Assembly (NCBI GenBank): GCA_049322915.1
Contig: JBMOPW010000014.1
Location: 96,001 to 160,000 of the forward strand
From: Candidatus Zhuqueibacterota bacterium
GTDB taxonomy: Bacteria; Zhuqueibacterota; Zhuqueibacteria; Thermofontimicrobiales; Thermofontimicrobiaceae
Reading direction: 5' to 3'
Length of the DNA stretch: 64,000 bases
This document shows, one piece after another, positions 12,812-53,463 of this stretch. A program made the position numbers and the translations under genes. The notes under the pieces were generated by a model that had not been told where the DNA came from, did not search any database, and worked only from the letters and a program-made list of their open reading frames with translations. Within the stretch, counting starts at the first letter, position 1; the number at the start of each line of letters is the position of its first letter.

Positions 12812-12827
12812 TGGCATGATTGTTGTT
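12812..12827 (+). promoter_or_regulatory. Putative sigma-54 (-24/-12) promoter, GT variant at -12
   Basis: TGGCATGATTGTTGTT: GG(12813-14)-N10-GT in AT-rich DNA upstream of a sigma-54 activator gene. Confidence 0.5.
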
Positions 12828-13048
12828 AAGGTTAGCATGAATTTAAACACATACTCTGAATGTTAAAGTAAATTAGCTATTGGCCGATATTTGTTTTAGG
12901 GTAAGCATCTTTGGTCAGGCAACTTAACAGCCCCAACGAAGTTTTGCAGTATAGGCATCATTGGAATCGCAACCTAAACTTGGTTGGGGTTGTCTTTTTT
13001 TAACTGGAGTTTGAAAGAAATTTGAGTTAAAAAGGAAACGGGGCCAGC

Positions 13049-14137
13049 ATGAATAATTTTGCTGAGGAACTTGATCTGAGCTGGGCGGAAACCAGCTTAG
13101 AGGCTCCTGAGGAAATAACGCAGAGTTGGGGTAAAAATTTTGGCTTTGACTATTATTATCCATTGGTTAGCCGAAGTTTGCAAATAAAAGAAATCTTACG
13201 ACTCATTAAAAAGGTCGCCAAGAGCAACGCCAGCATTTTAATACAGGGTGAAACCGGAACCGGAAAGGAATTGATAGCGGGATTAATTCAATTCATAAGT
13301 TTGCGATCAAATAAGCCCTACGTAAAAGTCAATTGTGCCGCCTTACCTGAAAATCTGTTGGAGAGCGAGCTATTCGGACATGAGAAAGGCTCTTTCACCG
13401 GCGCGTATCAGACTCGAATTGGTAAATTTGAGCAGGCCAATAATGGCACGCTATTCCTCGATGAAATTGGCGATATGAATTTTTCCACCCAGGCAAAGAT
13501 ACTCCGGGTTTTGCAGGATCAGGAATTCTCCCGGGTCGGTGGAAATAAAACGATTAGTGTGGATGTGAGAATTATCACCGCCACCAATAAAGACCTCTGG
13601 AAACAAATCGAAATGGGCAATTTTCGGGACGACCTGTATTATCGATTGAATGTCGTTACGATTAATGTGCCGCCGTTGCGCGAACGTAAAGAGGACATCC
13701 CGCTCATTGCGGAGTTTTTTCGGAGAAAATTTAGCAGTGAATTGAGAAAGCACACCCGTGGTTTCACCGAAGATACCATGAAGCTGATCAAGAACCACCA
13801 ATGGCCAGGGAACATCCGCGAGCTCAAAAACATCATCGAACGCGCGGTGCTCGTCGTGGAGGAAGGCGAAATGATCACTGCGGACGATCTCTCTCTCACA
13901 GGTAAAGACTACTTTGCAGCTGGAGGACGTGATCGACGAAAAAATATTGGAGAGAACTGGGGCTTCAATACGTTGAAATTAGAGGAACTCGAACGCGAGG
14001 CAATTCTCCAGGCTTTGGAGATCAGCCATTGGGTTCAGAAAGAAGCGGCAAAATTGCTGGGTGTTTCACCGCGGTCTCTCAACTACAAGGTCAAATTCCA
14101 CGGTATTACGCATACAAGCTGGAAAAAGAATATCTGA
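13049..14137 (+). CDS. Sigma-54-dependent enhancer-binding protein (AAA+ and Fis HTH) without N-terminal sensor domain
   Basis: GETGTGKE, ESELFGHEKGSFTGA, LFLDEIG, FRDDLYYRL, WPGNIREL, AAKLLGVS; only ~38 aa precede the AAA+ core. Confidence 0.95.
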   Translation: MNNFAEELDLSWAETSLEAPEEITQSWGKNFGFDYYYPLVSRSLQIKEILRLIKKVAKSNASILIQGETGTGKELIAGLIQFISLRSNKPYVKVNCAALPENLLESELFGHEKGSFTGAYQTRIGKFEQANNGTLFLDEIGDMNFSTQAKILRVLQDQEFSRVGGNKTISVDVRIITATNKDLWKQIEMGNFRDDLYYRLNVVTINVPPLRERKEDIPLIAEFFRRKFSSELRKHTRGFTEDTMKLIKNHQWPGNIRELKNIIERAVLVVEEGEMITADDLSLTGKDYFAAGGRDRRKNIGENWGFNTLKLEELEREAILQALEISHWVQKEAAKLLGVSPRSLNYKVKFHGITHTSWKKNI

Positions 14138-14157
14138 GAAATTCATATACATACATT

Positions 14158-14190
14158 GAAAAGCCTTCCAACGAGAAGGCTTTTTTTATT
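14158..14190 (+). terminator. Rho-independent terminator
   Basis: AAGCCTTC-loop-GAAGGCTT followed by T-run. Confidence 0.8.
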
Positions 14191-14932
14191 TCTCCTTTCA
14201 TCTTCAAACAAACACCACCTGAAATTATTCTGCTATTCTAAAAGTCGTCCGGAACGTTTCCAAACGGGCGACGACTTCAATCAAATCCATCAGCACATAT
14301 TTCGGAGTCGTGGTATTTTTACAACTGGCCGACGACGATTGATACTTCCGTCTGGTAAAAAGTATCGATGTAAAGCAAATGCCTGTTGGCCTTGATTTGA
14401 TGAGCGCCGCGCGTGAGCCCTGTCCGGTGAAATTACGGTTACCCGACCAGCGACTGACTCAGCCGCGTGTTCGTTGTATTTTTACAGGCGAGTGCTACGA
14501 ACAGTCAGCTCCCAGTCGGTCCTTTTTTCTGCATTCGCGGAACTGAGAAAGATACTTTAAATTGGGTGCGTGCACTATTACAACCGCTCCACTACCTCAT
14601 TTTATAATTGTCAGATTTCCTGCCGGGGACAAAACCACTTATTGAAATAATCCAAGTACCAATGTTACTATTTTATTTTATTCACCAGAATCAGGATAAA
14701 ATTTTAATGATTGCCTGCCATTAATAAAAAATATTACATGACGATAATATTAGTAACTGATGTTACAGAATAGAATCATTTCCTGATCTTTTCTCGGGTC
14801 ATGAAAAAGCATAACCCATTATTAAAACGTTTCAATTCTGAATTACTAACATGTAATGAAATGATTAACAAGCAAATAACATTGAATAGATATATTATTT
14901 AAAATAAATCAATTACAAAGACCAAAAATAAA

Positions 14933-14948
14933 TGGCACGCATATTGTG
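14933..14948 (+). promoter_or_regulatory. Putative sigma-54 (-24/-12) promoter for the Ig/FN3 surface protein
   Basis: TGGCACGCATATTGTG: consensus TGGCACG -24 box, GG-N10-GT, ~130 bp upstream of ATG 15079. Confidence 0.65.
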
Positions 14949-15078: not shown

Positions 15079-17694
15079 ATGAGTAAAACGAGACGAGTGG
15101 TGAAATGGCTTCGGGGGATGGTCGTAGTGTTTATTTTTCTGGCGAGAATAACGCACGCCGGGGAATTGACAGTTAGCTGGAATGCCAACACAGAAAGCGA
15201 TTTGAAGGGCTACAAAATTTATTATGGAACCGCCTCGCAGAATTACAATACTGTCGTGGATGTGGGCAACGTCGTGAACTATTCGTTGAATGGTCTTGCT
15301 GAAGGTCAGGTTTACTTTTTTGCGGTGACAGCATACGACACGGCTCATAATGAAAGCGGCTTTTCCGAAGAAGTGAGCGCGCAGGTGCAAGTCAACGATG
15401 TTACGCCGCCCACATTATATGCCGTAGATGTGGTCAATGCCTCTTTATTATATCTCACCTTCAGCGAGGAAGTCGAACGGGCATCGGCGGAAAACGTGAG
15501 CAATTACCAGATCAATAACAATGTGACTATTCTTTCCGTTCGATTGGCGCAGGGCAATCGCATTGTACACATTGAGACTGCTCCGCATCAGGCTGGCGCG
15601 TATTCAATCGTTGTCAATAACATCAGGGACCTGGCGACGAGTCCCAACTCCATCGCAGCCAACAGTTCCCTCAGCTACGAATACATTCCGGATGATTTCA
15701 CGCCGCCGTCAATGACGGAAGTCCGAAGTGTCGATGAAACTCATGTGGATGTCACGTTCAGCGAGGAAATCGAACGATCGACGGCTGAGACTACCGGGAA
15801 TTTCAAGATCAACAATGGGATCACTATTCAGCAGGTCAGTCTGGATCAAAATAACAGAACGGTGCACCTCGTTACCAACGCCCATGAAAATGGAGTGACA
15901 TACATTCTCACGGTCAATAAAGTCCGTGACGTTTCAGTTCAACATAACGAGATACCGGCGAATTCGTCCCTTTCATACACCTATTATGCTGATGACAATG
16001 TCAGACCCTACATCTATTCGGTCACGATCCGAAATGAAAATTTGGTCGATGTTGTATTTTCTGAGAAAATAACTGAGGCGTCGGCTGAGGCAATATCAAA
16101 TTTTCAAATTAATAACAACATAGCTGTCCTCGTGGCAATACTGGACAATGATCAGAAAACGGTTCATCTGTCCACAACCTCACACCTTGCCGGGGGCAAT
16201 TATGTTCTGACGGTCAACAATATCATGGACATGGCGCAGGTACCCAATTCGATTTTGCCGAACAGCATTGTCAGTTACAGCTATAATCCGGATGATACAG
16301 CGCCACCTCAAATCTCCCTGACAGAGTCGGTGGACGCCACGCATTTGCGCCTCACCTTTTCAGAGGCTCTGGACCGCGAGAGCGCTGAACTTGAGAATAA
16401 TTATAAGATCAATAAAGGGGTCAGCGTCATCGAGGCTGTGCTGGATGCGAGCGCTAAAATTATCCAGCTTGTAACCACAGCGCATACCAGTGGAGAGACG
16501 TATGTCCTGACGATTAACAATGTGAAGGATCAGGCGCCGGCGCCCAATGCTATTGCAGCAAATACTACGGCGGAGTATACTTACATCTATCAGGATGTGG
16601 AACCGCCACAGGTGACCAATGTGGATTTGATCGATCTCACCCATCTGGAAATCACATTTAACGAAATCGTGGAAAGAGAGTCGGCGGAGTTGGTGGCAAA
16701 CTATTCCATTTCCGATGATATCCTGATTTTCGGCGCAGTGCTGGATAACGATTTGAAGATTGTCCAGTTGACAACGTCCGCGCATGAAGAAAATAAAACG
16801 TATACATTAACGGTGAATAAGGTGCGGGATCGCTCGGATCATCGGAATGAAATTGTCCCGAATTCTAATTTCATTTACTCGTTGGAATCGGTCACGGAAG
16901 AAAGGGTGGCGTACTTGAATAAAGAATCGTATCAGTTGGCCTATCTCAATGTGGGCGATGCCTATTATATCGACAGGGATTATACCATCACATCCATTCC
17001 GGACGCGATGACCGGGTTCATGTGGATTTCAACAGCCAATGACGATCGGGGGGAAAAGGAAGAGGGCTTCCTGTCTTTCAAGCTGAGTGAGACGTCAAAA
17101 GTCTATGTCGCCTATGACAGCCGGGCGGCGAATTATCCCAACTGGTTAGTCCGTGATTTTCATCGCGTTGGTAAAAGCATCGGCGTCAGTGAATACGCGA
17201 AAAACCTGGACCTGTGGGAGGGGGAATTTGATTCCGGCATGGTTGTGCTGGGCGGAAATATGGCTGAAGGATCCCAGGGAGTGGAGAGCATGTATGTCGT
17301 CCTGATTGAATCGGAAAATTCGCTACGACCGCAGACACCTGAAAATATGAGCGATCCGTCATCGCTGGGACCGGCGGATATGTTTTTGCTCTATCAGAAT
17401 TATCCCAATCCGTTCAATGCCGGAACCGAAATACGATTTCAGCTTCCGAAGAATGTGTATGTTGAGCTGACCATTTATAATATTCTTGGGCAAACGATTC
17501 GCACCCTGGTTCAGGGCCACAAAAACGCTGGCCATCATTTACTGCAATGGGACGGCAAAAACAGCGATGGCTTAATCGTGCCCAGTGGTGTTTACTTTTC
17601 ACGGCTCATCATCAAACGGCAGGAACTTCTCAAGGGACGTAATATCGACAGAATTCTTTATAATAATGTGCGCAAAATGCTGATGGTGAAATAG
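15079..17694 (+). CDS. Secreted protein: FN3 + 5 tandem Ig-like repeats + FlgD-Ig/T9SS-like C-terminal domain
   Basis: Signal peptide; FN3 (SWNAN..DLKGYKIYYG...YFFAVTAYD); five ~100-aa D..P(P)...(T/V)F(S/N)E repeats; tail QNYPNPFN...WDGKN..G..VPSGVY...KMLMVK. Confidence 0.85.
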   Translation: MSKTRRVVKWLRGMVVVFIFLARITHAGELTVSWNANTESDLKGYKIYYGTASQNYNTVVDVGNVVNYSLNGLAEGQVYFFAVTAYDTAHNESGFSEEVSAQVQVNDVTPPTLYAVDVVNASLLYLTFSEEVERASAENVSNYQINNNVTILSVRLAQGNRIVHIETAPHQAGAYSIVVNNIRDLATSPNSIAANSSLSYEYIPDDFTPPSMTEVRSVDETHVDVTFSEEIERSTAETTGNFKINNGITIQQVSLDQNNRTVHLVTNAHENGVTYILTVNKVRDVSVQHNEIPANSSLSYTYYADDNVRPYIYSVTIRNENLVDVVFSEKITEASAEAISNFQINNNIAVLVAILDNDQKTVHLSTTSHLAGGNYVLTVNNIMDMAQVPNSILPNSIVSYSYNPDDTAPPQISLTESVDATHLRLTFSEALDRESAELENNYKINKGVSVIEAVLDASAKIIQLVTTAHTSGETYVLTINNVKDQAPAPNAIAANTTAEYTYIYQDVEPPQVTNVDLIDLTHLEITFNEIVERESAELVANYSISDDILIFGAVLDNDLKIVQLTTSAHEENKTYTLTVNKVRDRSDHRNEIVPNSNFIYSLESVTEERVAYLNKESYQLAYLNVGDAYYIDRDYTITSIPDAMTGFMWISTANDDRGEKEEGFLSFKLSETSKVYVAYDSRAANYPNWLVRDFHRVGKSIGVSEYAKNLDLWEGEFDSGMVVLGGNMAEGSQGVESMYVVLIESENSLRPQTPENMSDPSSLGPADMFLLYQNYPNPFNAGTEIRFQLPKNVYVELTIYNILGQTIRTLVQGHKNAGHHLLQWDGKNSDGLIVPSGVYFSRLIIKRQELLKGRNIDRILYNNVRKMLMVK

Positions 17695-18137: not shown

Positions 18138-20108
18138 ATGAAAAAAAATCAATTGAAAATCAGTGTTTTTGTATTGGCCATTATACACCTCGTGTCGTCC
18201 TTGCTTATGATAACCGATGCGCTTTCTCAAGAACCGTCCATTGTTCAGCAGGGCACCATGGAAGCAATTAGCAATCAAATGGCAATCCCCCAGACTCCTG
18301 TTCAGCAGCAGGAGGCGCTTTCAATTTTCGGTTATTCGTTTTTTCATTCGCCCCAGAATATCGATCGAATTCGGGCATTCAGCGGGCGCATGTTCCCGGA
18401 CGATTATCGGCTCGGGCCCGGAGATAGACTGGGCATATATTTGCTGGGAAAGACTCAGTTAAATTTCGACGTTGTCGTCAATGTGGAAGGTAAAATTTTC
18501 ATTCCGACGGTCGGGGTGCTTTTTGTCACCGGACTTTCAATCTCGGAATTTCAGGATGTCCTGAACCGGCACCTGGTAAAATACTATGATAATTTTTCAC
18601 TCAACATCATGCTCATCGAACCGAAGCAAGTCCCGGTCACTGTGGTGGGCGATGTTGAACGACCCGGGAAATACTACTTAAGTTCGTTGAATACAGTCCT
18701 CGATGCGGTGCTTGTGGCCGGTGGGCCGACACGAAGAGGCTCGCTGCGGAATATTCACGTTTACCGACAGGACAGCCTGTTCACAGTGGTGGACCTTTAC
18801 AAATTTTTAATGGAAGGCGAGACCAAGCAGCAGATATTTCTTCAACCTCACGATAAAATTGTCGTGCCGCTCATCGAGGCCATAGTTGCAGTTCGAGGCG
18901 AGGTGAAACGACCCGCCCGGTTCGAACTGAAGTTTGACGGAAAAGAACGACTCTCTGATCTGCTGACCCTGGCTGGAAATTTCACGGACCTGGCGTTCAA
19001 AGATAAAATTGAAATCAGCCGGCTCCTGAACAACGGGGAACGATTGGTGATGTATGTGGACTTTCGGCAGATTCAGGATGATGAGAATAACGCAGCCAAT
19101 ATCATCCTGAAGAATGAGGATCAAATTCAGGTTTTCTCCATTCTCGAACAGAGGTACCCGAAAAGTGTTTACATTCACGGTGAAGTGAAACGGCCGGGAC
19201 ACTATTCGTTTGAAGAAAATCTGCATCTGCTGGATCTGTTGCTCAAAGCCGGAAATTTAACCCGCAGCGCGTACATGCTCCGTTGCGAAGTCGCCAAAGT
19301 GGATCCCAAAGCGCCCACCGATATTCTCGCCATTGATTTACAGCAGGTGATCAATAATCCTTCGTCGCCGCAAAATATTTTACTGGAAGAGGACGACCGC
19401 GTTTTTATTCGGAGAATACCGGAATGGGAAGTAGGGCCAGTCATCGAAATAACCGGCGAAGTGCAGTTTGCCGGCATCTATGCCATTACCGAAGATAGCA
19501 CCACATTGTTCGACGTGATGACGCAAGCCGGCGGCTTCACGGACGAAGCACTGATCAGGGAAGCGAGTCTGATTCGGCGCAGCTCGACAATTAGCATTGA
19601 CAAAGAGTACGAACGCTTGAAGCAACTCCCCCGCGATCAGATGTCCGATACCGAGTACGAGTACCTGGTGATGAAGCAAAATAACCAGGACATCGGTCGC
19701 ATCGTCGTGGACTTTTTTCGATTGTGTATCAGCAAAGACCTGTCCGAAGACGTCCTGCTGGAAGATGGGGATATCATTCATGTGCCGAAAGCGCCCAAAG
19801 TGGTGTACGTGACCGGGAGGGTGTCGCGGCCGGGCGGCGTCGTCTATGTCCCGGGCAAAAATATCAAATATTATATCAAGAAGGCCGGCGGTGTCACCTG
19901 GGACGCCAAACGAAGGAGCACGAAAGTGACAAAAGTGACCGGCGAAATCCTGGACGATGAGGATGTATCCGACCTTCTGGCCGGCGATATCATCTGGGTG
20001 CCGCGCAAACCGGACCGGGATTGGTGGGAATTATTCCGCTACACAATCGCTGTCGTCGCTCAATTGGCCACAGTGTACATCGTGGTGGATAGTGCAGTCA
20101 ATAATTAA
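18138..20108 (+). CDS. Polysaccharide export protein with SLBB repeats (Wza/KpsD-like)
   Basis: DYRLGPGD, EGKIFIPTVG, repeated V.GEV..PG.Y SLBB units. Confidence 0.9.
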   Translation: MKKNQLKISVFVLAIIHLVSSLLMITDALSQEPSIVQQGTMEAISNQMAIPQTPVQQQEALSIFGYSFFHSPQNIDRIRAFSGRMFPDDYRLGPGDRLGIYLLGKTQLNFDVVVNVEGKIFIPTVGVLFVTGLSISEFQDVLNRHLVKYYDNFSLNIMLIEPKQVPVTVVGDVERPGKYYLSSLNTVLDAVLVAGGPTRRGSLRNIHVYRQDSLFTVVDLYKFLMEGETKQQIFLQPHDKIVVPLIEAIVAVRGEVKRPARFELKFDGKERLSDLLTLAGNFTDLAFKDKIEISRLLNNGERLVMYVDFRQIQDDENNAANIILKNEDQIQVFSILEQRYPKSVYIHGEVKRPGHYSFEENLHLLDLLLKAGNLTRSAYMLRCEVAKVDPKAPTDILAIDLQQVINNPSSPQNILLEEDDRVFIRRIPEWEVGPVIEITGEVQFAGIYAITEDSTTLFDVMTQAGGFTDEALIREASLIRRSSTISIDKEYERLKQLPRDQMSDTEYEYLVMKQNNQDIGRIVVDFFRLCISKDLSEDVLLEDGDIIHVPKAPKVVYVTGRVSRPGGVVYVPGKNIKYYIKKAGGVTWDAKRRSTKVTKVTGEILDDEDVSDLLAGDIIWVPRKPDRDWWELFRYTIAVVAQLATVYIVVDSAVNN

Positions 20109-20123: not shown

Positions 20124-21431
20124 ATGGATCATGAACAGAAAAAAGAAGTCGATTTGCTGGATTACCTCAATGTCATTGTGAAGCACAGAAGAGCCATCAT
20201 GAGGAATGTGCTCGTCGTTGCGTTGTTCATTGGTGTTGTGAGTTTTTTGCTGCCATCGACCTACACGGCGCGAACAACCATTTTGCCGCCAGAAGATCTT
20301 CAATCCCCCAGTATTCTGACTGAGCTTTCCAGTTCACCGTCGTTATCGAACCTGCTATTTACCGGCGCTGGAACGACGTCCGACCTCTACGTTGAAATTC
20401 TGAAGAGTCGTAGCGTGCTGGACGCTGTGCTGCAGAAAGAATTCAGTTACAGGAAAAGCAGTAAAAATCCCGGACAGCGGAAGCTCCTTTCCATTTTAAA
20501 ACAAAAGAGCCTGGAAAAAGGGCGGCTGCGACTTGCTTCCCGAATCCATGTGAAGTCATCCGCTGAGGGAATTATCACCCTCGACGTGGAATTAGGCGAT
20601 CGTCATTTAGCATCGGACGTTGCCAATGCGCTGGTAGTGGAATTGGATAAGATCAATAAGGAGAAGAATACCTCTCGCTCGAAAAATTCCAGAATCTATC
20701 TTGAAAACCAATTGAAGGACACGAAAGCCAAACTCAAGGACGCGTCCGAAGCGTTGGTCAAATTTAAAGAGAAATACAAAGCCATTGCCCTGGAAGAGCA
20801 GACGCAGACCGCGATCGAAAGCATCGGTGAGTTGAAAGGTCGCATCGTCGCCAAGAATGTTGAATTGGGAGTGGCGCGGCAGTCGATGAAGTCGGACAAT
20901 GTGGTGGTCGTGAAGATCAGAAAAGAAATCGAAGAACTGGAAAAGCAGTACAGAAATTTGCAGTTCGGCGACGACGATTCAACGACGTCCGAAAGAGAAA
21001 TTTATATTCCCATCGCTGATGTGCCGGCTGTGGGCCTGGAACTGGCCGAATTGGTTCGCGAGGAAAAAGTCCAGGAGACAGTTTGGGAATTGTTGAATCA
21101 ACAATATTATCAGGCAAAGCTGCAGGAAGCGCGGGATACGCCAACGATTCAGGTGCTGGACGAAGCGGTTCCACCGGAGCAGCGCACTAAGCCGAAGCGA
21201 AAAATCCTGGTTCTCGTCGGCAGCTTTCTGGCGTTAATATTGAGCATTTTTGGCGCCTTTGTCGTGGAGTTCGTCCATAACCTGAAGCAGGATGATTCGG
21301 CGCAGGGCAAGGCCATCGGTATTTCCAGCGCGCTCACATCGGATTGGATCCACATGAAGAACTACTCGCGTGCATTCATCCAGAAACTGAAATTCCGAAA
21401 AAAGAGCCGCTTCTCAGGATTGGATAGTTGA
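20124..21431 (+). CDS. Polysaccharide chain-length determinant (Wzz/Wzc N-terminal, GumC-like; no kinase domain)
   Basis: EVDLLDY, TM1, Y.ARTTILPP, coiled coil, VLDEAVPP..RTKPKR, TM2. Confidence 0.88.
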   Translation: MDHEQKKEVDLLDYLNVIVKHRRAIMRNVLVVALFIGVVSFLLPSTYTARTTILPPEDLQSPSILTELSSSPSLSNLLFTGAGTTSDLYVEILKSRSVLDAVLQKEFSYRKSSKNPGQRKLLSILKQKSLEKGRLRLASRIHVKSSAEGIITLDVELGDRHLASDVANALVVELDKINKEKNTSRSKNSRIYLENQLKDTKAKLKDASEALVKFKEKYKAIALEEQTQTAIESIGELKGRIVAKNVELGVARQSMKSDNVVVVKIRKEIEELEKQYRNLQFGDDDSTTSEREIYIPIADVPAVGLELAELVREEKVQETVWELLNQQYYQAKLQEARDTPTIQVLDEAVPPEQRTKPKRKILVLVGSFLALILSIFGAFVVEFVHNLKQDDSAQGKAIGISSALTSDWIHMKNYSRAFIQKLKFRKKSRFSGLDS

Positions 21432-21591
21432 ACCCCGGCAGGCCGGCGCAGTCAGTCCTGACAGTAAAAACCATTTGACCGATCCAATGGTTCGGGCGGA
21501 TGAATTGATGTGTCGAGCTTAAAATTAAGTCGGAAGAAGATTCCGGCTCAGATTGATTGTTACTTAAATTTCTAAAATGGATTTCTATAAT

Positions 21592-21743
21592 AGTATCAGC
21601 TCAATAAAAGATGGAAATGTCATTGCGAGGAACGTTTTTTGTGACGAAGCAATCCCTGGTTTACCCCGGGAGATTGCTTCGTCCCGATAAATCGGGACTT
21701 CGCAATGACACGTTTTCTTACCATAACTTATTGAGCAGATACT
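21592..21743. mobile_element. MITE-like element (TIR AGTATC(A/T)GCTCAATAA, TATAAT flanks) enclosing a GTCATTGCGAG...CGCAATGAC palindrome
   Basis: 16-bp inverted ends with 1 mismatch; TATAAT at 21586-21591 and 21744-21749. Confidence 0.8.
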
Positions 21744-21749
21744 TATAAT

Positions 21750-44104: not shown

Positions 44105-44106
44105 TT

Positions 44107-45372: not shown

Positions 45373-45479
45373 CGCGCATCGCCCCGGGCCGGGCGATTGT
45401 TACAGTCGCTTTCCCCGCTGATATTGTGAGAGCGCGCTACCATAGAAAAAAACAGCCGGAGTTGTTGCCCGAATTCCCC

Positions 45480-46607
45480 ATGAATACTGAGAAAACGATA
45501 AAACTCTGTCACATCACAACGGTTCATCCCGTCCGGGATGTCCGGATTTTTTTCAAAGAGTGCGTCAGCGCCGCAAGGTTCGGCTACGACACGCATCTGA
45601 TCGTCCGGCATGATCGGGATGAGACCGCGGATGGCGTTAAAATTCTCGCTCTGCCGCTGGCGCCGGCAAAGGGATTGCGGCGTCCGGTCAATATGTTCCG
45701 CGCTCTGAAACGGGCGCTGGCCGTGAAAGCGGACATCTACCAATTCCACGATCCGGAACTGCTCATCATTGGCATGCTGCTCAAAGTGCTGACGCGCGCG
45801 AAAATCATCTACGATGTTCACGAGGACATCCGGAAACAGACGCTGGGAAAATCATGGATAGCTCCCTGGCTGCGGCGGCCTGTCGCGTTCGGTTTGCATG
45901 CGTTGGAATCGTTGGGCGAGCAATTTTTCGATGCCATTATTGTGGCGGAAGATTCCTACATTCCAAATTTTTGTCGCGCGCCGGTTGTCATTTATAATTA
46001 TCCGATTTTAAAAGAATACCCGCACCGGCAAGGCGCGTCGCATGGCGCCAATCTCATCTATGTCGGCGCTATCACCAGGATGCGGGGCGCGTTTGAAATG
46101 ATCGCAGCGGTCGAGCTGCTGGCGCGGCGATTCCCCGACGTGAAACTGTATCTCATTGGACAATTTTTTCCGGCGTCGCTGGAGCGAGAGGTGAAAGAGC
46201 GGATTGCCCGGGCCGGGCTGGAGAAAAACATTGTCATCACCGGCCGGATGAATTACACCGACATGTTCGGCTATCTGCAAAACGCGGATATTGGTCTGGC
46301 TGTGCTGCATCCGGATGGCAACTACATCCATTCGCTTCCAACCAAGATGTTCGAGTATATGATGCTGGGAAAGCCGGTAGTTGTCTCGCATTTCCCGCTG
46401 TGGGAGGGGATTGTCCGTGAAGCCGGCTGCGGAGTCGTCGTCGATCCGCTTGCCCCGGAAGACATTGCAGAAAAAGTCGCCGTTCTGATAACGGATGAAA
46501 AGCGCCGGAACGAAATGGGCGAGAACGGGCGGAAAGCGGTTTTCGAAAAATTTAACTGGTCGAGTGAAGAGGAGAAGCTGATCGCATGCTATCGAAAATT
46601 GATCTGA
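45480..46607 (+). CDS. Glycosyltransferase family 4
   Basis: TTVHP..DVRIF.KEC, YQFHDPEL, YDVHED, PTKMFEYM; real start ATG 45480. Confidence 0.9.
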   Translation: MNTEKTIKLCHITTVHPVRDVRIFFKECVSAARFGYDTHLIVRHDRDETADGVKILALPLAPAKGLRRPVNMFRALKRALAVKADIYQFHDPELLIIGMLLKVLTRAKIIYDVHEDIRKQTLGKSWIAPWLRRPVAFGLHALESLGEQFFDAIIVAEDSYIPNFCRAPVVIYNYPILKEYPHRQGASHGANLIYVGAITRMRGAFEMIAAVELLARRFPDVKLYLIGQFFPASLEREVKERIARAGLEKNIVITGRMNYTDMFGYLQNADIGLAVLHPDGNYIHSLPTKMFEYMMLGKPVVVSHFPLWEGIVREAGCGVVVDPLAPEDIAEKVAVLITDEKRRNEMGENGRKAVFEKFNWSSEEEKLIACYRKLI

Positions 46608-47398
46608 ACGATATTGGCAATGAGCGAACCATCCGGTTCCTGAAGCAAATACAGCCGGATAGTGGAATCTATAAAAACAATTACGAATACGCGTGTTACA
46701 TCGCCTTGTACCTGTTTGCCCATCGGTTCTGCGCCGGCAAAAATGTGCTCGATGCAGCGTGCGGTTTGGGCTACGGAAGCTATCTGCTCGCCACCACAGC
46801 GTGCCATGTCGAGGGAATTGATATAGATGAGTCCCGCATTGCCTATGCCCGGGAAAAATATGGGAGCGGGAGTGTCCGGTACGCTGTTTCGGAAGTGACC
46901 GACACGCCGTTCGAAAACGATAGTTTCGATGTGGTTGTCTCCATCGAGACGTTCGAGCATCTCCGGCCGGAGCAGGCCGTCCTGTTTCTCTCGGAAGTGA
47001 AACGCATTTTAAAGCCTGACGGAATTTTTATCCTGTCCACGCCCAACAAGCCGGTGTTCGACCAGATAACCCGGGTGGAAGATCATATCAACGAAATGGA
47101 TGTGGATTCGCTCCGCGAATTGTTCGCCCGACATTTTACTTCGGTACAAATGTATCATCAGCGAAAGAATGTGCTGAACGACATGAAAGCCTACTACTCC
47201 GTGATCAAAATGGATAGATTCAAACTGCGGCAATTGTTTCCCAGGCGATTGCGGAAATTTGTCAATCGATTCGTCGCCAGGGACGTCACCCGGGAAATCG
47301 ACAGCATTTTGCCGACGGTGCTCGTGCAGAAGGCCGAGTCGCCGGACGAAGTGAAACAGGCGCCCATTCAGCTTGTGGTGTGCAGCCTGCCGAAATGA
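46586..47398 (+). CDS. Class I SAM-dependent methyltransferase (probably glycan-modifying)
   Basis: VLDAACGLGYG, FDVVVSIETFEH, ILSTPN. Confidence 0.85.
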   Translation: MLSKIDLNDIGNERTIRFLKQIQPDSGIYKNNYEYACYIALYLFAHRFCAGKNVLDAACGLGYGSYLLATTACHVEGIDIDESRIAYAREKYGSGSVRYAVSEVTDTPFENDSFDVVVSIETFEHLRPEQAVLFLSEVKRILKPDGIFILSTPNKPVFDQITRVEDHINEMDVDSLRELFARHFTSVQMYHQRKNVLNDMKAYYSVIKMDRFKLRQLFPRRLRKFVNRFVARDVTREIDSILPTVLVQKAESPDEVKQAPIQLVVCSLPK

Positions 47399-47547
47399 AG
47401 CCGGCCGGTTCGGGTGCGCGGGTATTTTCGACAGCGCGAATACGCCGCTCAAATGACAATACGGCCCAAAAAGACAGTGGCAATTTACTAATTTTTTTCT
47501 TATCTTCTCATCGCAGAATTAGTATCCATAAGATGGAGAACTCAAAG

Positions 47548-48282
47548 ATGGAATTATTTACTAATATCTATTTGGGAGATAGCAGAGAGGTATTGACTCA
47601 AATACCGGATAATTCAGTGGATTTAATTTTTACATCACCACCATACGCGGATAGACGGAAGGGTACGTATGGTGGCATTCATCCGGATCACTATGTTCAA
47701 TGGTTTTTGCCAATTTCAAAAGAATTGTTAAGAGTCATGAAACCAACCGGGACGTTCATTTTGAATATCAAGGAAAAAGCAGTTGATGGAGAACGTCATA
47801 CGTATGTCATTGAGCTTATTCTTGAAATGAGAAAGCAGGGCTGGTTTTGGACCGAAGAGTTTATCTGGCACAAGAAAAACTCGTACCCTGGCAAATGGCC
47901 GAATCGGTTCAGGGACGCGTGGGAACGATTAATCCAATTCAACAAACAAAAACAGTTTGCAATGTATCAGGAAAGAGTCATGGTTCCAGTGGGATCATGG
48001 TCTGAAAATAGACTCAGCCTGCATTATTCATAGTATTTTTAAAGGAGGCTGGCTAACCTGAATGGTGCTCTTTTTAGAATAAACGTATAAAAACTGAGTT
48101 TCAAAATAGCTTAGCCTTTAGCTAATTGAAAATCTGAATGTTGACTCAAATTCTGAGCAAGTTCATGAATAATTCAGGTTAAAAAACTGAGCGAAACGGA
48201 TAAAAAAAGGGACATATCAAAAGTCGGTAGCGGCTTTGGAAAAAGTAAAAATGGTTATTTACTTAATGAGTTAGCTGTGTGA
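47548..48282 (+). pseudogene. Amino-DNA methyltransferase (beta-class), interrupted by a MITE and truncated
   Basis: GDS..VL...PDNSVDLIFTSPPY, FIWHKKNSYPGKW; frame resumes after the insert as LKKLSETDKKRDISKVGSGFGK and stops before any SAM-binding DPFxGxG motif. Confidence 0.85.
48018..48178. mobile_element. 161-bp MITE inserted in the methyltransferase gene (ends resemble IS1380-type)
   Basis: CCTGCATTATTCAT ... ATGAATAATTCAGG (14-bp inverted repeat, 1 mismatch); removing it plus the 4-bp left flank restores the MTase frame. Confidence 0.75.
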
Positions 48283-48333
48283 TAGCTTTATTAATTTTAT
48301 GATTAATTGAAGTTATACATAATGATAAAAAAG

Positions 48334-49515
48334 ATGAAAGTTAAAAAAGATTTTACTGAGAGACTATTAAATCTCATTTCAGAACCCCAGTTTATTAAAT
48401 TTGAAAATATCTTAAGTGAGCCGAATTTTTTCAAAATTGTTGGAAGAGCACACTATGAAAGATGGCATTCGTGTTTTCTGGGCTGGTTACTCGATCCTGG
48501 TGGATCGCATTTACTGTCTCATTATACTTTATTGAGATTTTTATTAATTTTATTAGATGAGAGATGTTTAAAATCAATTCGTCATCATAATTATTTACTT
48601 CTTAAAATATTACCGACGGTCGAATTCTGGGATGTAGATGTAGTACCGAATGAAAATATTTCTAAGGAAACAAGTATTAGTGGTGTGGGTCGGTTCGACA
48701 TTTTTATTTCCACCAGATACAAAGGTATTGATAATCATGAGGGGAGACTGAATTGTATAATTGAATTGAAAATTGATTCTACTCCTGACGCAAATCAGTC
48801 GAAAAAATATGCAGATTGGTTAATCGACAATCATGAAAATGATGAGAATTTATTAGTATATCTCACACCAAATCTTTTAGATAATTCAAAAAATACTATT
48901 GGGGATGATCGATGGTATTGTATTGATTATCAGCTTCTTAATGATAAATTCTTATTGCCTTTGACAGACCATCCAAACTTGAATGAAAAAGTAAAACCCT
49001 TTATCATTCAGTATATTAAAAACTTGAAAATTAGATATAAGGGAATTAAGATGGCAATAACAAATGAAGAAAAAAAATTGGCGATAGCGCTATATGAAAA
49101 ATATAGCGACATATTCGATTCGATTTATGACGCTTTGGTTATAACGGGTACTGTCGATTACAGTACTTCAGATCTACAGAAAGATGTAGGAAGAGTATAT
49201 GGAAGAATTGCTGTAAAAGTAGATAAAAAAGTAATGTCAAATGATACGGTTAGATTATTATTTCTAGATGTTTTGAAATATTTAGTAGATGAAAATTTAG
49301 TACTAAAATTACCTTTGCCTTGGGGGTCTAGTAATAAAAGGTACCTTATCACTAACGAGACTGTTCCGAAACATCCGAATGGGCGAGATTTTTTTTATCC
49401 CGTCCGCTATTTAGAGTATACGATGGAGAGTCATTTTGCACGTGAAAGGGGATTGAAGGTATTAGCGGATTTATGCAGGAAACTAGAAGTTGAATTTGAA
49501 ATAATTGATACCTAA
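48334..49515 (+). CDS. PD-(D/E)XK nuclease family protein (PDDEXK_4-like), AT-rich
   Basis: NFFKIV...E.WHS.FLGWLLDP..SH, GRFDIFI...IIELKIDS...NQ..KY. Confidence 0.8.
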   Translation: MKVKKDFTERLLNLISEPQFIKFENILSEPNFFKIVGRAHYERWHSCFLGWLLDPGGSHLLSHYTLLRFLLILLDERCLKSIRHHNYLLLKILPTVEFWDVDVVPNENISKETSISGVGRFDIFISTRYKGIDNHEGRLNCIIELKIDSTPDANQSKKYADWLIDNHENDENLLVYLTPNLLDNSKNTIGDDRWYCIDYQLLNDKFLLPLTDHPNLNEKVKPFIIQYIKNLKIRYKGIKMAITNEEKKLAIALYEKYSDIFDSIYDALVITGTVDYSTSDLQKDVGRVYGRIAVKVDKKVMSNDTVRLLFLDVLKYLVDENLVLKLPLPWGSSNKRYLITNETVPKHPNGRDFFYPVRYLEYTMESHFARERGLKVLADLCRKLEVEFEIIDT

Positions 49516-49755: not shown

Positions 49756-49935
49756 AAAACAGTTCGAATGCCCGCGGATAGCCTGTATGACTGGAGAGCG
49801 AAGTTACATAAATCCGCGGTGACTGAGCCCTGTTTGCCTGTTCAGAATGCCGCGCCGTTCGGGCCGCGCAGCCAGATCAGTGTCAGGTTCGGATCGTCAA
49901 CGCTCGATTCAATCAGGAAGCATGTTTCTTTCAGA

Positions 49936-51171
49936 ATGAATATTTTATACATCACACAATACTATCCGCCGGAGATTGGCGCAACGCAAACCCGCGCCGT
50001 GGAAATGGCCAAAAATCTGGTGCAGCGGGGGCATGCGGTCACCGTGCTGACAGAGTTTCCGAATCATCCCACTGGCGTGATCCCTGAAAAGTATCGGTTC
50101 AAATTATTTCAGCGCGAGACCGATTCCGGCATTGACGTCCTCCGAATGTGGGTCTACGCCAGACCCAAAAAGAATTTTGCAACGCGGATGCTGTTCTACC
50201 TCAGCTTTATGGTGACGGCGATTATTGGCGGACTGGCGCTTCGGAAAAAATTCGATGTGGTTTTTGCTACATCACCGCCTCTTTTTGTTGGCGCAGCCGG
50301 TGCTGTCATTTGTTTTTTCCGAAGAGCGAAGTTAGTCCTGGAAGTGCGGGATTTATGGCCGGAGACAGCGGTTATTCTCGGTGAATTATCCAATAAATAT
50401 TTTATAAACCTTTCCGAAAAACTGGAGCTATTCCTATATAATACATCTGAACGCATTGTCACAGTGACGTCCGGTTTTAAGAACCGTATCATCGAGCGGG
50501 CAAAAGTGCCTCCTGAGAAAATTATTGTCATTCCCAACGGCGCCAACACCGAGCTATATCGCCCGGGCGAAAAAGATACGACGGTTCTGCAGAACCTGGA
50601 CATTGACGCAGCGACATTCATCATCGGGTATACCGGGCTCCATGGCTTGATGCACGGATTGGATTTTGTCGTCGAGGTGGCCAATCAGTTAAGGGAAGAG
50701 AAAGATATCTTCTTTCTTTTCATCGGCGAGGGCGTGCGCAAAGCGCATTTAATTGAAACCGCCCGGAAATATGGGCTGGGCAACATGATGTTTTTAGAGG
50801 CTCAGGCTGAGGAACAACTGCCGCGTTATATTCAAACGTGCGACCTGGGATTGACGACCATTAAAAAAACAATCGTTTCCGATCGGGTCATCCCGGTCAA
50901 AGTCTTCACCTACATGGCCTGCGCGAAACCGGTGCTGCTCTGCGTGGATGGCGAGACCCGGGAGATCGTTGAGCAGGCCGGGGCCGGACTCTTTGCCGAG
51001 CCGGAAAATGTGGACCAGCTCAAGGATGCTATTCTTAAATTGAAGAACGATCCGGCGCGATGCAGAACCATGGGGCAAAATGGGCGGCGCCTTGTGGAGC
51101 AGCATTATTCCCGAGCCGCGCTCGCACAGAAATTGGAGCAGTGCCTGCTGGAGGCTTCTGCCGGTCGATAA
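49936..51171 (+). CDS. Glycosyltransferase family 4 (WbuB/WcaI-like)
   Basis: MNILYITQYYPPEIGA, FPNHP, TSPPLF, EVRDLWPE, PVKVFTYMA. Confidence 0.9.
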   Translation: MNILYITQYYPPEIGATQTRAVEMAKNLVQRGHAVTVLTEFPNHPTGVIPEKYRFKLFQRETDSGIDVLRMWVYARPKKNFATRMLFYLSFMVTAIIGGLALRKKFDVVFATSPPLFVGAAGAVICFFRRAKLVLEVRDLWPETAVILGELSNKYFINLSEKLELFLYNTSERIVTVTSGFKNRIIERAKVPPEKIIVIPNGANTELYRPGEKDTTVLQNLDIDAATFIIGYTGLHGLMHGLDFVVEVANQLREEKDIFFLFIGEGVRKAHLIETARKYGLGNMMFLEAQAEEQLPRYIQTCDLGLTTIKKTIVSDRVIPVKVFTYMACAKPVLLCVDGETREIVEQAGAGLFAEPENVDQLKDAILKLKNDPARCRTMGQNGRRLVEQHYSRAALAQKLEQCLLEASAGR

Positions 51172-51189
51172 ACGCAATCAGATAAAATT

Positions 51190-52284
51190 ATGTGGTATTA
51201 TCTTTTCGGATATATTTTCATTCTCACTTTCGCTGTCAGCTATGCGCTGGTTCCTGCCATTCGAACAATGGCTGAAAAGCTGGCTGTTTTAGATCATCCT
51301 GGGGAACGTAAAATTCACACGACTCCCAAGCCTCGAATGGGTGGATTGGCGTTTGTGTCTTCCTTTGTGCTCGTTATTATGCTGCACATTGCCGGTCTAT
51401 ACGTGTTCCGGGACAGCGATTTGATCGCACAGCATTTTCCAATGGTGGTTCGGGTGATGGATCGGCTCAGCAGCGTGCTGCCCAAACTTATGGTGATCCT
51501 GATCGGGGGAGTATTGATGACTGTGATCGGTCTGCTGGACGATTACTTTCGCGAGCAGTTTTCGTACCGGTTCAAATTTCTGGCTCAGTTTGCAGTGGCA
51601 GCGCTGGTGGTTTCATTCGGCATTCGGACGGAGTTTTTGCCCGGCGCCATTCTGGATATTCTCGTCTCGGTGATTTGGATTGTAGGGATGAGCAATTCCT
51701 TCAATCTGCTGGATAATATGGATGGTCTGGCGGCCGGGATTTCAGTGATTTCCGCTCTGTTATTTTTTATCATTTCCATTGTGCAGCAGCAGGTGTTTAT
51801 GGCGTTCATCTTCTGCGCGTTTGCCGGAAGTGTGTCAGGCTTTTTGCCGTATAATTTCAAGCCCGCCAAAATTTTTATGGGGGATACCGGCAGCCTGTTC
51901 ATCGGATTTTTGTTCGGCGCGTTGACGCTTCAGAGTTCCTATCGCGTGCCGGGGAGCCATTCGCTGATTACGGTCATTCTGCCGGTGATCATTCTGAGCA
52001 TCCCGATCTATGATACCCTGTCGGTGATCCTGATACGGATGAGAGAACGGCGCTCGATTTTCATTGGCGACAAATGCCATTTTTCACATCGATTGGTCAA
52101 TCTCGGTTTCTCGGAAAAATGGGCGGTCCTGTTCATCTATCTGATTTCGTTGTGCATCGGGATCGGTTCGCTGCTTTTGCCCTATACGCCGCTGTGGGGA
52201 AATATTCTGATTTTAATGCAAGCAATTTCCATTTATATCCTGATTACCGCCCTGATGGTTGTTGGACGAAATAACCATTGCTGA
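51190..52284 (+). CDS. MraY/WecA-family polyprenyl-phosphate HexNAc-1-P transferase (copy 2)
   Basis: DHPGERKIH..P.PRMGG, GLLDD, NSFNLLDNMDGLA, IFMGDTG, DKCHFSH. Confidence 0.92.
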   Translation: MWYYLFGYIFILTFAVSYALVPAIRTMAEKLAVLDHPGERKIHTTPKPRMGGLAFVSSFVLVIMLHIAGLYVFRDSDLIAQHFPMVVRVMDRLSSVLPKLMVILIGGVLMTVIGLLDDYFREQFSYRFKFLAQFAVAALVVSFGIRTEFLPGAILDILVSVIWIVGMSNSFNLLDNMDGLAAGISVISALLFFIISIVQQQVFMAFIFCAFAGSVSGFLPYNFKPAKIFMGDTGSLFIGFLFGALTLQSSYRVPGSHSLITVILPVIILSIPIYDTLSVILIRMRERRSIFIGDKCHFSHRLVNLGFSEKWAVLFIYLISLCIGIGSLLLPYTPLWGNILILMQAISIYILITALMVVGRNNHC

Positions 52285-52488
52285 GAGAGAAAAATTTTAG
52301 AGATATTTTTTTCTAATGTATTGATGTTTGATGTCGAGAGTCACATATAAAAAGTGGAGAAGCGAATAATTAATTTATAACATGTGCCGATACATGTAAA
52401 TAACCAACATGAAAACGAGACGATCCATCGTGGAGTAGAGCTAACGAATTACGGTTCAGACCAAAAATAAATTTTAAAGGAGCAATGT

Positions 52489-53463
52489 ATGAGAGCATTA
52501 ATCACTGGTGGCGCTGGTTTTATTGGGTCGCACCTGGCAGAAGAATTACTGCGTCGTGGCGACATGGTGTTTGTCATTGATGATCTGTCAACAGGGAGGT
52601 TGGAGAATGTGGAGCACTTAATGACCAGCCCCCGGTTTAATATTGCTGTGGAATCGATTTTAAATGAAACAGTGATGGATCGATTGGTCAGCGAGTGCGA
52701 TATCATTTATCATCTGGCTGCGGCAGTTGGGGTGGAATTGATTGTGAGCCGGCCGGTCGAGGTGATCGAGACGAATATTTTGGGCACCCACATGGTGCTG
52801 AAGGTAGCGAAGCGCTACCTCAAAAAAGTGCTGCTGACGTCGACGTCGGAAATCTATGGCAAAAGTGACAAGATTCCGTTCAAAGAAAATGATGACCGCG
52901 TATTAGGCCCCACGACAAAAAATCGGTGGAGTTATTCCAGTTCCAAGGCAATCGATGAGTTTCTGGCATTGGCCTATCACAAAGAGAAGGATCTGGAAGT
53001 TGTTCTTGTGCGATTATTCAATACGGTTGGACCGCGGCAAACAGGACGTTACGGGATGGTGATTCCGCGATTCGTCGTTCAGGCGCTCAAGGGCGAACCG
53101 ATTACAGTATACGGCTCCGGAAAACAGATCCGCTGCTTCACCTACGTTTCGGATGTGGTCGATGCCATCATCAATCTGGCGTACAATGCCGAAGCGGTCG
53201 GCCAAATTTTTAACGTCGGTAACACAGAGTCCATCAGCATCAATGACCTGGCTGTGAAAGTGAAAGAGATGACAAATTCCAGTTCCGAGATCGTGCACAT
53301 CCCCTACGACCAGGCGTACGAAGAAGGGTTCGAGGATATGACCATTCGCGTCCCGGATTTGTCAAAGATTAAAACGCTGATCGGTTATCAGCCGAGCGTT
53401 CAGCTAACAGAAATCCTGGAAAATGTCATTGAATATTTTACCAACGAGCGATTGAGGTATTGA
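52489..53463 (+). CDS. NAD-dependent nucleotide-sugar epimerase/dehydratase (extended SDR)
   Basis: TGGAGFIGSH, STSEIYG, YSSSK, RLFNTVGPRQ. Confidence 0.92.
   Translation: MRALITGGAGFIGSHLAEELLRRGDMVFVIDDLSTGRLENVEHLMTSPRFNIAVESILNETVMDRLVSECDIIYHLAAAVGVELIVSRPVEVIETNILGTHMVLKVAKRYLKKVLLTSTSEIYGKSDKIPFKENDDRVLGPTTKNRWSYSSSKAIDEFLALAYHKEKDLEVVLVRLFNTVGPRQTGRYGMVIPRFVVQALKGEPITVYGSGKQIRCFTYVSDVVDAIINLAYNAEAVGQIFNVGNTESISINDLAVKVKEMTNSSSEIVHIPYDQAYEEGFEDMTIRVPDLSKIKTLIGYQPSVQLTEILENVIEYFTNERLRY

Follow-up and report, generated by a model that had tools for sequence, protein, structure and literature searches.

A conserved gene block around an ILEI-bearing PorU paralogue points to a protein-and-sugar surface coat in KSB1-type bacteria

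Surface attachment of proteins by type IX secretion systems (T9SS) is known mainly from a few Bacteroidota. In Porphyromonas gingivalis, the C25 family enzyme PorU belongs to the PorU-PorV-PorZ-PorQ complex and uses lipopolysaccharide (LPS) that is made from scattered genes. Removal of the C-terminal domain (CTD) of a protein and its transfer to a glycan is the chemistry described for PorU in PMC10202324, and PMC13086638 and PMC7468200 describe the Porphyromonas acceptor as a seryl-amino sugar that derives from WbpA/B/E/D, VimA/E and WbpS. A second related arrangement is given by the exosortase (EpsH/XrtA)/PEP-CTERM loci with PrsK-PrsR, which comprise about 40 kb and combine exopolysaccharide (EPS) genes with a sorting-type enzyme and a sigma-54 activator. 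According to Haft et al. (2006, PMC1569441), a single cargo gene stands there behind a long intergenic gap with a -24/-12 motif and a motif for the activator. Here, we describe a gene block that resembles both systems. It lies on a stretch of 64,000 nucleotides (the window in the following, G000:C14:96001-160000) of a KSB1-type uncultured bacterium, whose genome comprises 6.25 Mb at 96.32% completeness. All sizeable genes across positions 13049-53463 are encoded on the forward strand, as are the features with window coordinates given below. Gene identities in the window were assigned with Pfam (gathering scores) and NCBIfam (curated cut-offs), and each element that an earlier sequence-only reading had listed within 12812-53463 was located there. 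We consider with high confidence that the block is a single functional module. Its C25 peptidase together with the block is a variant of the PorU attachment system, laid out like the exosortase/PEP-CTERM loci, and the block points to a conserved protein-and-sugar surface-coat machine of KSB1-type bacteria. With enzyme, glycan pathway, cargo and switch in one conserved block of an uncultured phylum, it provides a compact and testable case.

The PorU-like C25 peptidase of the window (36472-42363) comprises 1963 amino acids (aa). Pfam detected a Propeptide_C25 domain, the catalytic Peptidase_C25 domain at residues 779-1130 (272.7 bits), two CARDB domains and a FlgD_ig tail at 1884-1948. Furthermore, two ILEI domains of the GG-lectin type are inserted at about residues 605-720 and 1410-1530 and thereby flank the catalytic domain (PF15711, 176.5 bits against a cut-off of 27). 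The catalytic His and Cys are invariant in 18/18 aligned family members, and in the alignment to PDB entry 6za2 this Cys falls on the one in PorU's active-site motif. Thus, the C25 protein with intact His/Cys, two ILEI domains and a T9SS-like tail that had been read from the DNA was borne out by Pfam and by the alignment. By far the best PDB match is PorU itself (6za2, E 1.8e-31, 111.5 bits), to our knowledge the sole solved PorU structure, and this match consists of two stretches, the C25 domain and the last 200 residues (PorU 952-1151 onto 1766-1960). The gingipains RgpB and Kgp share with the window enzyme the peptidase family, the catalytic dyad, a propeptide-type N-terminal domain, a CTD and secretion by the T9SS. 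However, their PDB matches were far weaker (Kgp 1e-7, 32.6 bits; RgpB 1e-5, 25.9 bits), and the PorU-like C-terminal region had no gingipain counterpart in this search. Based on both PDB and NCBIfam scores, the peptidase is nearer to PorU than to the degradative gingipains, in agreement with the earlier proposal.

The best NCBIfam model for the peptidase is NF052324 (putative T9SS sortase PorU2) with 427.9 bits, under the cut-off of 450, and the match is broken by an ILEI insert near model position 346. The model of the T9SS sortase PorU itself, NF033707, gave 403.3 bits, under the curated cut-off of 420, with positions 5-312, 326-744 and 875-1094 being matched, which represent its N-terminal, catalytic and C-terminal parts. 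Among eight relatives tested, two reached the cut-off of NF033707 (435.5 and 428.4 bits) and three that of NF052324 (456.4, 475.3 and 457.4 bits). Since the peptidase falls just under both cut-offs while 2/8 and 3/8 relatives pass, the ILEI-C25 family appears, by model scores, to stand at the borderline of both the PorU and the PorU2 models. With PorU of P. gingivalis, the window enzyme has the C25 fold, the His/Cys pair and the PorU-type N-terminal, catalytic and C-terminal/CTD regions in common. In contrast, it exceeds by far the 1156 residues of the 6za2 chain, with ILEI and CARDB domains inserted. It is a third paralogue encoded within a Wzx/Wzy/Wza cluster, whereas PorU uses LPS made elsewhere; the Wbp/Vim linker genes are not in the block, and the host belongs to KSB1 and not to the Bacteroidota. 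If compared against the PDB, the ILEI domains matched the stem domain of POMGnT1 (1e-15), FAM3B (5e-12) and a cell-surface hyaluronidase. The POMGnT1 stem domain is sugar-binding. In the public records seen, family members are just named 'C25 family cysteine peptidase', 'T9SS type A sorting domain-containing protein' or 'hypothetical protein'. Within one literature collection, we found no paper on PorU2 (full-text search), none that pairs ILEI with peptidase C25, none on type IX secretion in KSB1 or Caldithrix and, among the papers listed, no report of sigma-54 regulation of T9SS cargo.

The genome of the host resembles that of P. gingivalis with respect to the T9SS, since it contains SprA (893.6 bits summed), PorV (258.3 bits against a cut-off of 250, besides many PorV-like barrels), PorZ (265.8 against 260) and many type-A CTD proteins. 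In addition, two full-length canonical PorU proteins are encoded in tandem about 1 kb apart (G000:C7:386485-394032; 868.7 and 818.5 bits). They have the same skeleton as the window peptidase, without ILEI or CARDB domains, and 44 further matches in the genome are restricted to the CTD-like C-terminal part of the PorU model. The window peptidase is thus a third PorU paralogue beside a complete attachment set. Three more distant C25 paralogues are located at C7:201856, C44:176681 (with an in-frame TGA) and C34:135207.

The second main component of the block is a sensor-less bacterial enhancer-binding protein of 362 aa (13049-14137). An N-terminal stretch of 39 residues precedes its AAA+ domain (Sigma54_activat, 238.9 bits), which is followed by a Fis-type HTH_8 domain (49.9 bits). 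Walker A and a GSFTGA loop (GAFTGA-type) are retained, and there is no sensor domain. The sensor-less sigma-54 activator that had been postulated is therefore present. It resembles PspF and HrpR/HrpS, which likewise consist of an AAA+ sigma-54 domain and a helix-turn-helix (HTH) domain without N-terminal sensor; these proteins are controlled in trans, and by analogy the window activator would be as well. Nevertheless, it differs from PspF in its score (303 against the PspF cut-off of 443.55) and in its putative target, a T9SS cargo gene, and no PspA- or HrpV-like partner of the activator was identified. A terminator-like hairpin with an 11-pair stem and a T tract (14158-14185) ends the activator transcription unit, and the genome encodes rpoN (438.8 bits).

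Downstream, behind a gap of 940 nt, follows the cargo gene (15079-17694), which codes for an Ig-repeat secreted T9SS protein of 871 aa. It comprises a signal peptide, an fn3 domain, about six Big_5-type Ig repeats, a beta-sandwich at about residues 606-748 and a type-A CTD with FlgD_ig (TIGR04183, type-A sorting domain, 30 bits against a cut-off of 23). No PEP-CTERM family was among its NCBIfam matches. The beta-sandwich belongs to no Pfam family. An AlphaFold model built from 15 orthologues (pLDDT 78.8) matched the C-terminal domain of a GH2 beta-glucuronidase (6hpd) with a Foldseek value of 1.3e-8 and a VIA-align Z score of 19.9 (rmsd 2.3 over 138 residues), followed by the C-terminal domain of GH138 (6hze) with Z 11.4, while the next match reached Z 4.7. 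Judged from this model, residues 606-748 would be an accessory beta-sandwich of polysaccharide enzymes. The same domain (about 608-760) recurs in arrays of proteins of about 1100 aa in G004/G083 (around C1:4076793-4094807 and 4604065-4608537), with a dozen or more matches in one genome (E 1e-26 to 1e-33), and thus represents an expanded paralogous family.

The parallel to the exosortase loci that had been drawn from the DNA is apt in several respects. Within about 40 kb, the block brings together EPS genes, a sigma-54 activator and an enzyme of the sorting type. As in the PEP-CTERM loci (PMC1569441), a single cargo gene stands behind a large gap that holds an activator motif and a -24/-12 motif. 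Furthermore, several block genes have their best, yet sub-threshold, NCBIfam matches in XrtA-system families. However, no exosortase was found, as PF09721 gave no match in the 96.32%-complete genome, and the cargo tail is a T9SS CTD instead of a PEP-CTERM. The window enzyme is a secreted cysteine peptidase of the outer surface, whereas exosortase is an inner-membrane protein. In contrast to PrsK-PrsR, the activator of the window lacks a receiver domain and is not accompanied by a gene for a PrsK-type kinase. The likeness to exosortase systems is one of layout only.

To assess the sites in these gaps, promoters were scored with an author-built weighted -24/-12 consensus (maximum 19.5) on both strands of the window (128 kb). 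The candidate sigma-54-type promoter of the cargo gene, TGGCACGCATATTGTG (14933-14948), starts 146 nt before the ATG. Taken by itself, this proposed promoter is no better than chance, since 25 sites with at most two mismatches to the sigma-54 consensus were observed in the window against 32.8 expected. As this count shows no enrichment, the case for the promoter is made by its conservation. Only three sites on both strands score 17 or more, TGGCACGCATATTGTG among them. In 12 of 14 orthologous loci, the highest score within the activator-to-cargo gap belongs to a site 44-233 nt ahead of the first ATG; in the remaining two, such a site ranks second (G006) or is missing (G083), so that a like site is present in 12-13/14 loci. 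The conserved form is TGGYAY-N5-TTG(C/A/T), with per-locus chance values of 0.009-0.27, and the -12 element of the 13 orthologous sites reads TTGC (6), TTGA (4) or TTGT (3). Another sigma-54-type -24/-12 site, TGGCATGATTGTTGTT (12812-12827; score 16.5 of 19.5), is found about 240 nt before the activator gene, and the gap between ECF-ATPase and activator holds a like site (scores 16-18) in 13/14 orthologous loci. Moreover, a candidate activator-binding palindrome, TTACTAACATGTAA (TTAC-N6-GTAA; 14843-14856), is located 90 nt upstream of the -24 element of the cargo promoter. With at most one mismatch, TTAC-N6-GTAA occurs 20-170 nt upstream of the -24 element in 11/13 loci, compared to 4.6% of 150-nt background tiles, and 0/2000 shuffles reached 11. 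This statistic is generous, because the motif was found post hoc in these same sequences. Autoregulation of the activator is not claimed, as the motif stands before the activator's promoter in 6/13 loci and is absent there in the window.

The block is not a peculiarity of one genome. A word-seeded search revealed 660 relatives of the peptidase at E <= 0.001 among 8000 scored candidates. ILEI and C25 were both present in 120/120 of the relatives listed, and the named ones belong to KSB1 or Calditrichaeota. The cluster is also carried by a metagenome-assembled genome labelled Caldithrix (L034). In a survey of the phylum with one genome per species (145 genomes at least 80% complete, genome G147 included in the tallies, although no specific claim depends on it), the peptidase family was found in 97/145 genomes, mostly with one full-length match. 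Nearly all genomes of families f1-f17 have it, against 0/28 genomes of f18-f24. A candidate from Neomarinimicrobiota (L082) was not counted as a family member, since it showed 30% identity in the catalytic domain and no ILEI match.

The linkage of peptidase, activator and cargo is conserved as well. Orthologues of the activator are 61-96% identical and stand directly upstream of the cargo gene in 14/15 contexts examined. A cargo orthologue directly followed the activator orthologue in all five genomes first tested, three of which are contiguous with Wza-Wzz-...-peptidase. Among the matches listed, cargo and peptidase genes share one contig in 16 genomes of nine families, with the cargo gene upstream and co-oriented in 16/16 at a distance of 0.3-37 kb. 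The postulated linkage of the activator and a CTD cargo upstream of the peptidase was hence recovered in each of these 16 genomes. The full block order, including the Wza/Wzz pair after the cargo gene, was confirmed for G114, G083, G098, G119, G006 (a member of another class), G079, G090, G057 and G106. Even where protein identity amounts to 32-40% and the flanking genes are different, the order persists. Compact versions exist too: in G148, activator, a small fn3 protein, cargo and peptidase follow each other with nothing between; in G133, the order is activator, cargo, DegT, an unknown gene and peptidase; and in G134, activator, DegT, DUF4185, a Calx-beta CTD protein and peptidase. The CTD protein of G134 (L116 13541-16570; 1009 aa) has six Calx-beta domains and a T9SS tail and replaces the Ig-repeat protein, so the cargo slot seems to be exchangeable. 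The constant core of the loci is the activator, a CTD protein and the peptidase. The mere phyletic co-occurrence of cargo and peptidase was dropped as evidence, because cargo-like proteins occur in 114/145 genomes, including 27/28 of those in families without the peptidase.

Glycan genes likewise accompany the peptidase, as had been proposed. We compiled 54 public loci, of which 41 were informative (the 5' end of the gene and at least 1.5 kb upstream), and the downstream side was tallied in 32. In 33/41 loci, the 1.5 kb upstream of the peptidase gene contain a co-oriented WecA-type gene; four more have it just downstream and four are without. Within 3.5 kb upstream, a GT4 gene was found in 25/33 loci. 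Downstream of the peptidase gene, a UXS-like gene was found in 19, a WecA-type gene in 12, a flippase gene in 5 and a Wzy_C gene in 4 of the 32 loci, and 13/32 possess none of these. For the second flippase/ligase/WecA set that had been pointed out, this means that the genes are present in the window, but neither the second flippase nor the second Wzy_C is a conserved neighbour. In three of the 13 loci with none of these genes downstream (L057 16146-17675, L061 16159-17661 and L069 16223-17725), the peptidase gene is directly followed by a gene for a 500-aa membrane protein with DUF92 in its C-terminal half (about 220 bits) and then by housekeeping genes (enolase, an Omp85-family protein); this DUF92 protein has no counterpart in the window.

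In divergent members, ILEI-1 or both ILEI domains are precisely missing. We reconstructed a quick maximum-likelihood tree of catalytic domains (47 rows with 2 identical pairs, SH-aLRT support only, own-genome paralogues as outgroup), from which partial genes among the 54 loci were omitted and in which the long outgroup branches L004, L008 and L082 are unreliable. Forms with one and with no ILEI domain constitute one clade (support 99) nested in the two-ILEI forms, and in this quick tree the last ILEI domain was lost at least three separate times. Four genes lack ILEI altogether. Three of them have usable flanks (G145, G134 and G148), and glycosyltransferase (GT), WecA and flippase genes were found in 0/3, with DegT only in G134 and none in G148; the contig of the fourth (G012) is too short. 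In contrast, glycan genes lie beside 4/5 distinct one-ILEI loci. This is the best hint, at the sequence level, that the ILEI domains may read the glycan of their locus.

The polysaccharide genes of the window fill the space on both sides of the peptidase gene. Behind the cargo gene follow a Wza-like outer-membrane exporter (18138-20108) and a Wzz/PCP-like chain-length protein (20124-21431). A sugar-modifying trio (22207-25511) consists of a hexapeptide N-acetyltransferase (22207), the UDP-GlcNAc 2-epimerase WecB (22961; 330 bits against the TIGR00236 cut-off of 210) and a DegT-type 3-aminotransferase (24312). The next genes (25471-30316) encode a Wzi-like outer-membrane protein (25471), a Wzy_C polymerase/ligase (27241) and a Wzx-type flippase (28784). 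Then a glycosyltransferase cassette (30384-35914) comprises a GT-A-like gene (30384), a GT2 gene (31457), two GT4 genes (32487 and 33661) and the WecA-type initiating transferase (34856), which directly precedes the peptidase gene. The 298-aa product of 30384-31280 had no Pfam or NCBIfam match and is conserved in L030, L039 and L104; ESM Atlas places it with GT2-like glycosyltransferase clusters (feature score 0.99, TM 0.9), which we regard as a lead only. Behind the peptidase gene, the second set (42836-47398) contains Wzy_C (42836), a flippase (44002), a GT4 gene (45015) and an S-adenosylmethionine (SAM) methyltransferase (46586) and is present in the closest relatives L030 and L032. The block ends (49768-53463) with a GT4 gene (49768), a WecA-type gene (51190) and a UDP-glucuronate decarboxylase-like gene (52489), the best PDB match of which is a UDP-glucuronate decarboxylase (9e-62) and not a plain epimerase. 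Initiator, flippase, Wzy-family, chain-length and exporter proteins all five score above the Pfam gathering scores, while the NCBIfam equivalog cut-offs are unreached. A similar described gene set is the group 1 capsule cluster of Escherichia coli (Wza-Wzc-Wzi, Wzx/Wzy), since exporter, chain-length, Wzi-like, flippase, Wzy-family and initiator proteins are all present. However, the Wzz-like protein of the window lacks a kinase domain, the NCBIfam scores are far under the cut-offs, and the cluster includes the peptidase and cargo genes.

Taken together, one might envision the following course of events. The activator, controlled in trans since it has no sensor domain, would switch on transcription of the cargo gene by means of sigma-54. 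Both the cargo and the peptidase would leave the cell via Sec followed by the T9SS, the latter step through their CTDs. The products of the intervening genes would assemble a glycan on undecaprenyl, which would then be flipped, polymerised and exported. At the cell surface, the PorU paralogue would hold this glycan via its two lectin-type ILEI domains, a role that the separate protein PorZ plays in Porphyromonas. Its His/Cys site would remove the CTD of the cargo, and the new C terminus would be transferred to the glycan in a sortase-like manner, or the cargo would be released into the glycan, where its beta-sandwich domain may help retention. In its general form, namely that a sigma-54/activator-controlled Ig-repeat T9SS protein is processed by a lectin-bearing PorU paralogue and coupled to or lodged in the polysaccharide of the locus, we hold this reading to be slightly less than an even bet. 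Covalent attachment of the cargo to the locus glycan is inferred. The more specific idea of a self-contained 'glyco-sortase' coat, an equivalent of exosortase/PEP-CTERM among T9SS organisms, in which a PorU paralogue with lectin domains replacing PorZ couples one dedicated, sigma-54-switched Ig-repeat protein covalently to a Wzx/Wzy-made and Wza-exported polysaccharide rather than to LPS, is tentative, and we would call it rather unlikely at this stage. If true, it would mean a switchable glycoprotein coat in much of the KSB1 phylum, and that T9SS sortases can specialise for particular glycan-cargo pairs. Three questions are raised by the block in any case: how a PorU-type enzyme chooses its acceptor glycan, whether private sortase-cargo pairs exist beside a general one in T9SS organisms, and whether bacteria came on two occasions, by way of unrelated enzymes, to combine a sorting enzyme, EPS genes and sigma-54-driven cargo in this manner.

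Several observations weigh against the coupling of cargo and glycan by the peptidase. First, the sugar chemistry differs from the known case. PMC13086638 and PMC7468200 indicate that the Porphyromonas acceptor requires a free amine from the Wbp/Vim pathway. A WbpA dehydrogenase, a WbpB oxidoreductase and a FemAB-type VimA were not found by Pfam in 12812-53463, where such a pathway is represented by just an aminotransferase, an acetyltransferase and a 2-epimerase; the best VimA-like gene (C14:430099) is situated about 290 kb from the block and about 20 kb from porZ. The acetyltransferase matched QdtC (5e-26) better than WlbB (5e-15), and the aminotransferase matched 7b0d (8e-121) and QdtB (2e-107) better than WbpE (3e-85). 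A QdtB/QdtC-like pair would give an N-acetylated and non-nucleophilic amino sugar. The anchoring glycan of 'WbpD/E/I-like' origin proposed by the sequence-only reading thus found no support, and a different amine-bearing acceptor in the block is possible. Second, the CTD of the cargo is ordinary, being 45-58% identical to many other CTDs, so nothing marks the cargo as a private substrate. Cargo-like proteins are found in 27/28 genomes of the peptidase-less families, and about 20 or more peptidase-bearing genomes gave no cargo match at E 1e-40. Third, TGGCACGCATATTGTG has GG at -24 and TTGT at -12, with T in place of C, and both the promoter score and the TTAC-N6-GTAA motif are our own constructs, the latter a post hoc one. 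Fourth, the correlation of ILEI domains with glycan genes comes from three loci or lineages only. In G145, the ILEI-less peptidase gene stands alone among housekeeping genes, and in G011 a one-ILEI form has no glycan gene in 11.7 kb upstream, with the contig ending after the gene. Fifth, the proposed T9SS core is represented by SprA, PorV, PorZ and two PorU proteins, but PorLM/GldLM were not found; GldL (TIGR03513) and GldM (TIGR03517) gave no match in the own genome nor in any control genome, which makes this search uninformative. Finally, sequence cannot separate transpeptidation from plain proteolysis.

This last point leads to the main rival explanation, a lectin-targeted protease, which we consider doubtful yet serious. 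Here the peptidase would be a T9SS cargo docked to the glycan by its ILEI domains and a hydrolase only, without covalent coupling; it would trim or mature the Ig-repeat protein or degrade foreign proteins, and the cargo would be held non-covalently by its beta-sandwich. The C25 family does include true proteases, namely the gingipains with their PDB matches at 1e-7 and 1e-5, and the window peptidase bears a type-A CTD of its own. Glycoside hydrolases share the cargo domain as an accessory domain at their C terminus (Z 19.9 and 11.4), and an amine-bearing linker pathway is not encoded in the block. However, the full-length PorU skeleton includes N- and C-terminal regions that gingipain entries leave unmatched. 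Moreover, the gene is mostly single-copy, widely kept and fixed in its position by one cargo gene, which is more in line with a partner in processing than with a general protease. Even if the peptidase were a protease only, the block would still be a phylum-wide envelope gene cluster that deserves proper annotation.

Compared with the coupling of cargo to glycan, it is far less probable that the gene order is simply inherited. The peptidase would then serve many cargos as one more general isoform of PorU, the third, or be a structural component of the T9SS, and its location beside envelope-polysaccharide genes and one sigma-54-controlled cargo would be a frozen accident dating from the ancestor of the phylum. 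Such a view could build on the presence of the gene, mostly as a single copy, in nearly all genomes of families f1-f17, on the ordinary CTD of the cargo and on the isolated gene of G145, and since kin share gene order, counts across relatives overstate independence. Yet the order survives 32-40% protein identity while the flanks differ, it is precisely the activator, a CTD protein and the peptidase that are retained in the compact loci, domain loss tracks the loss of glycan neighbours in three lineages, and the genome already has two canonical PorU proteins. We give equally little credence to a protein O-glycosylation cassette, in which Wzy_C proteins (relatives of WaaL/PglL) load a WecA-initiated oligosaccharide onto cargo and/or peptidase in the periplasm and the peptidase is merely a glycoprotein partner of the coat: the window does hold two Wzy_C-family genes, both with 'putative O-glycosylation ligase, exosortase A system-associated' as best match (44.8 and 69.1 against 188 bits), and two WecA-type initiators, but the second Wzy_C lies beside the peptidase in 4/32 loci only, Wza, Wzz and Wzi indicate an exported polymer, and the conserved His/Cys site and the ILEI domains would be left without a role.

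The remaining features concern the extent of the block and its surroundings. The earlier description as one co-oriented block of about 40 kb holds with respect to the strand, but at 47380-49515 an insertion of 2.1 kb with 34% G+C, which is not part of the module, breaks its continuity. It encodes a DNA-methylase fragment of 217 aa (N6_N4_Mtase positions 1-126 of 221) and a PD-(D/E)XK nuclease of 402 aa (PDDEXK_4). In the nearest relative, L030, the insertion is missing and the methyltransferase and GT4 genes adjoin. It resembles a restriction-modification or mobile insertion that has decayed. On its 5' side, the block is preceded by housekeeping genes, the last of which (11732) encodes an ECF-transporter ATPase. 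Although it is a conserved neighbour, this gene was set aside as housekeeping and not as a module member, since it clears the EcfA cut-off (342.7 against 330). On the 3' side, ExbD/ExbB/TonB genes follow on the opposite strand. A scan of 12000-54000 with Rfam gave zero families at gathering score. Between the Wzz-like and the acetyltransferase gene, a gap of 776 nt (21431-22207) contains no open reading frame (ORF) over 68 aa and carries two weaker sigma-54-like sites, TGGAAATGTCATTGCG at 21612 and TGGAATCCGTCTTGCC at 21773, each scoring 16. Further upstream in the window, at 3700-6383, a histidine kinase gene is followed by a response regulator gene with TackOD1 and a weak GGDEF domain, both preceded by PilN-like and CHAT-domain genes. 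At the other end, an fn3-bearing ORF leaves the window (62986-63999 onward), and just beyond the end a CTD-type match of the PorU model lies at C14:160597-160830; another T9SS cargo gene probably starts at this end.

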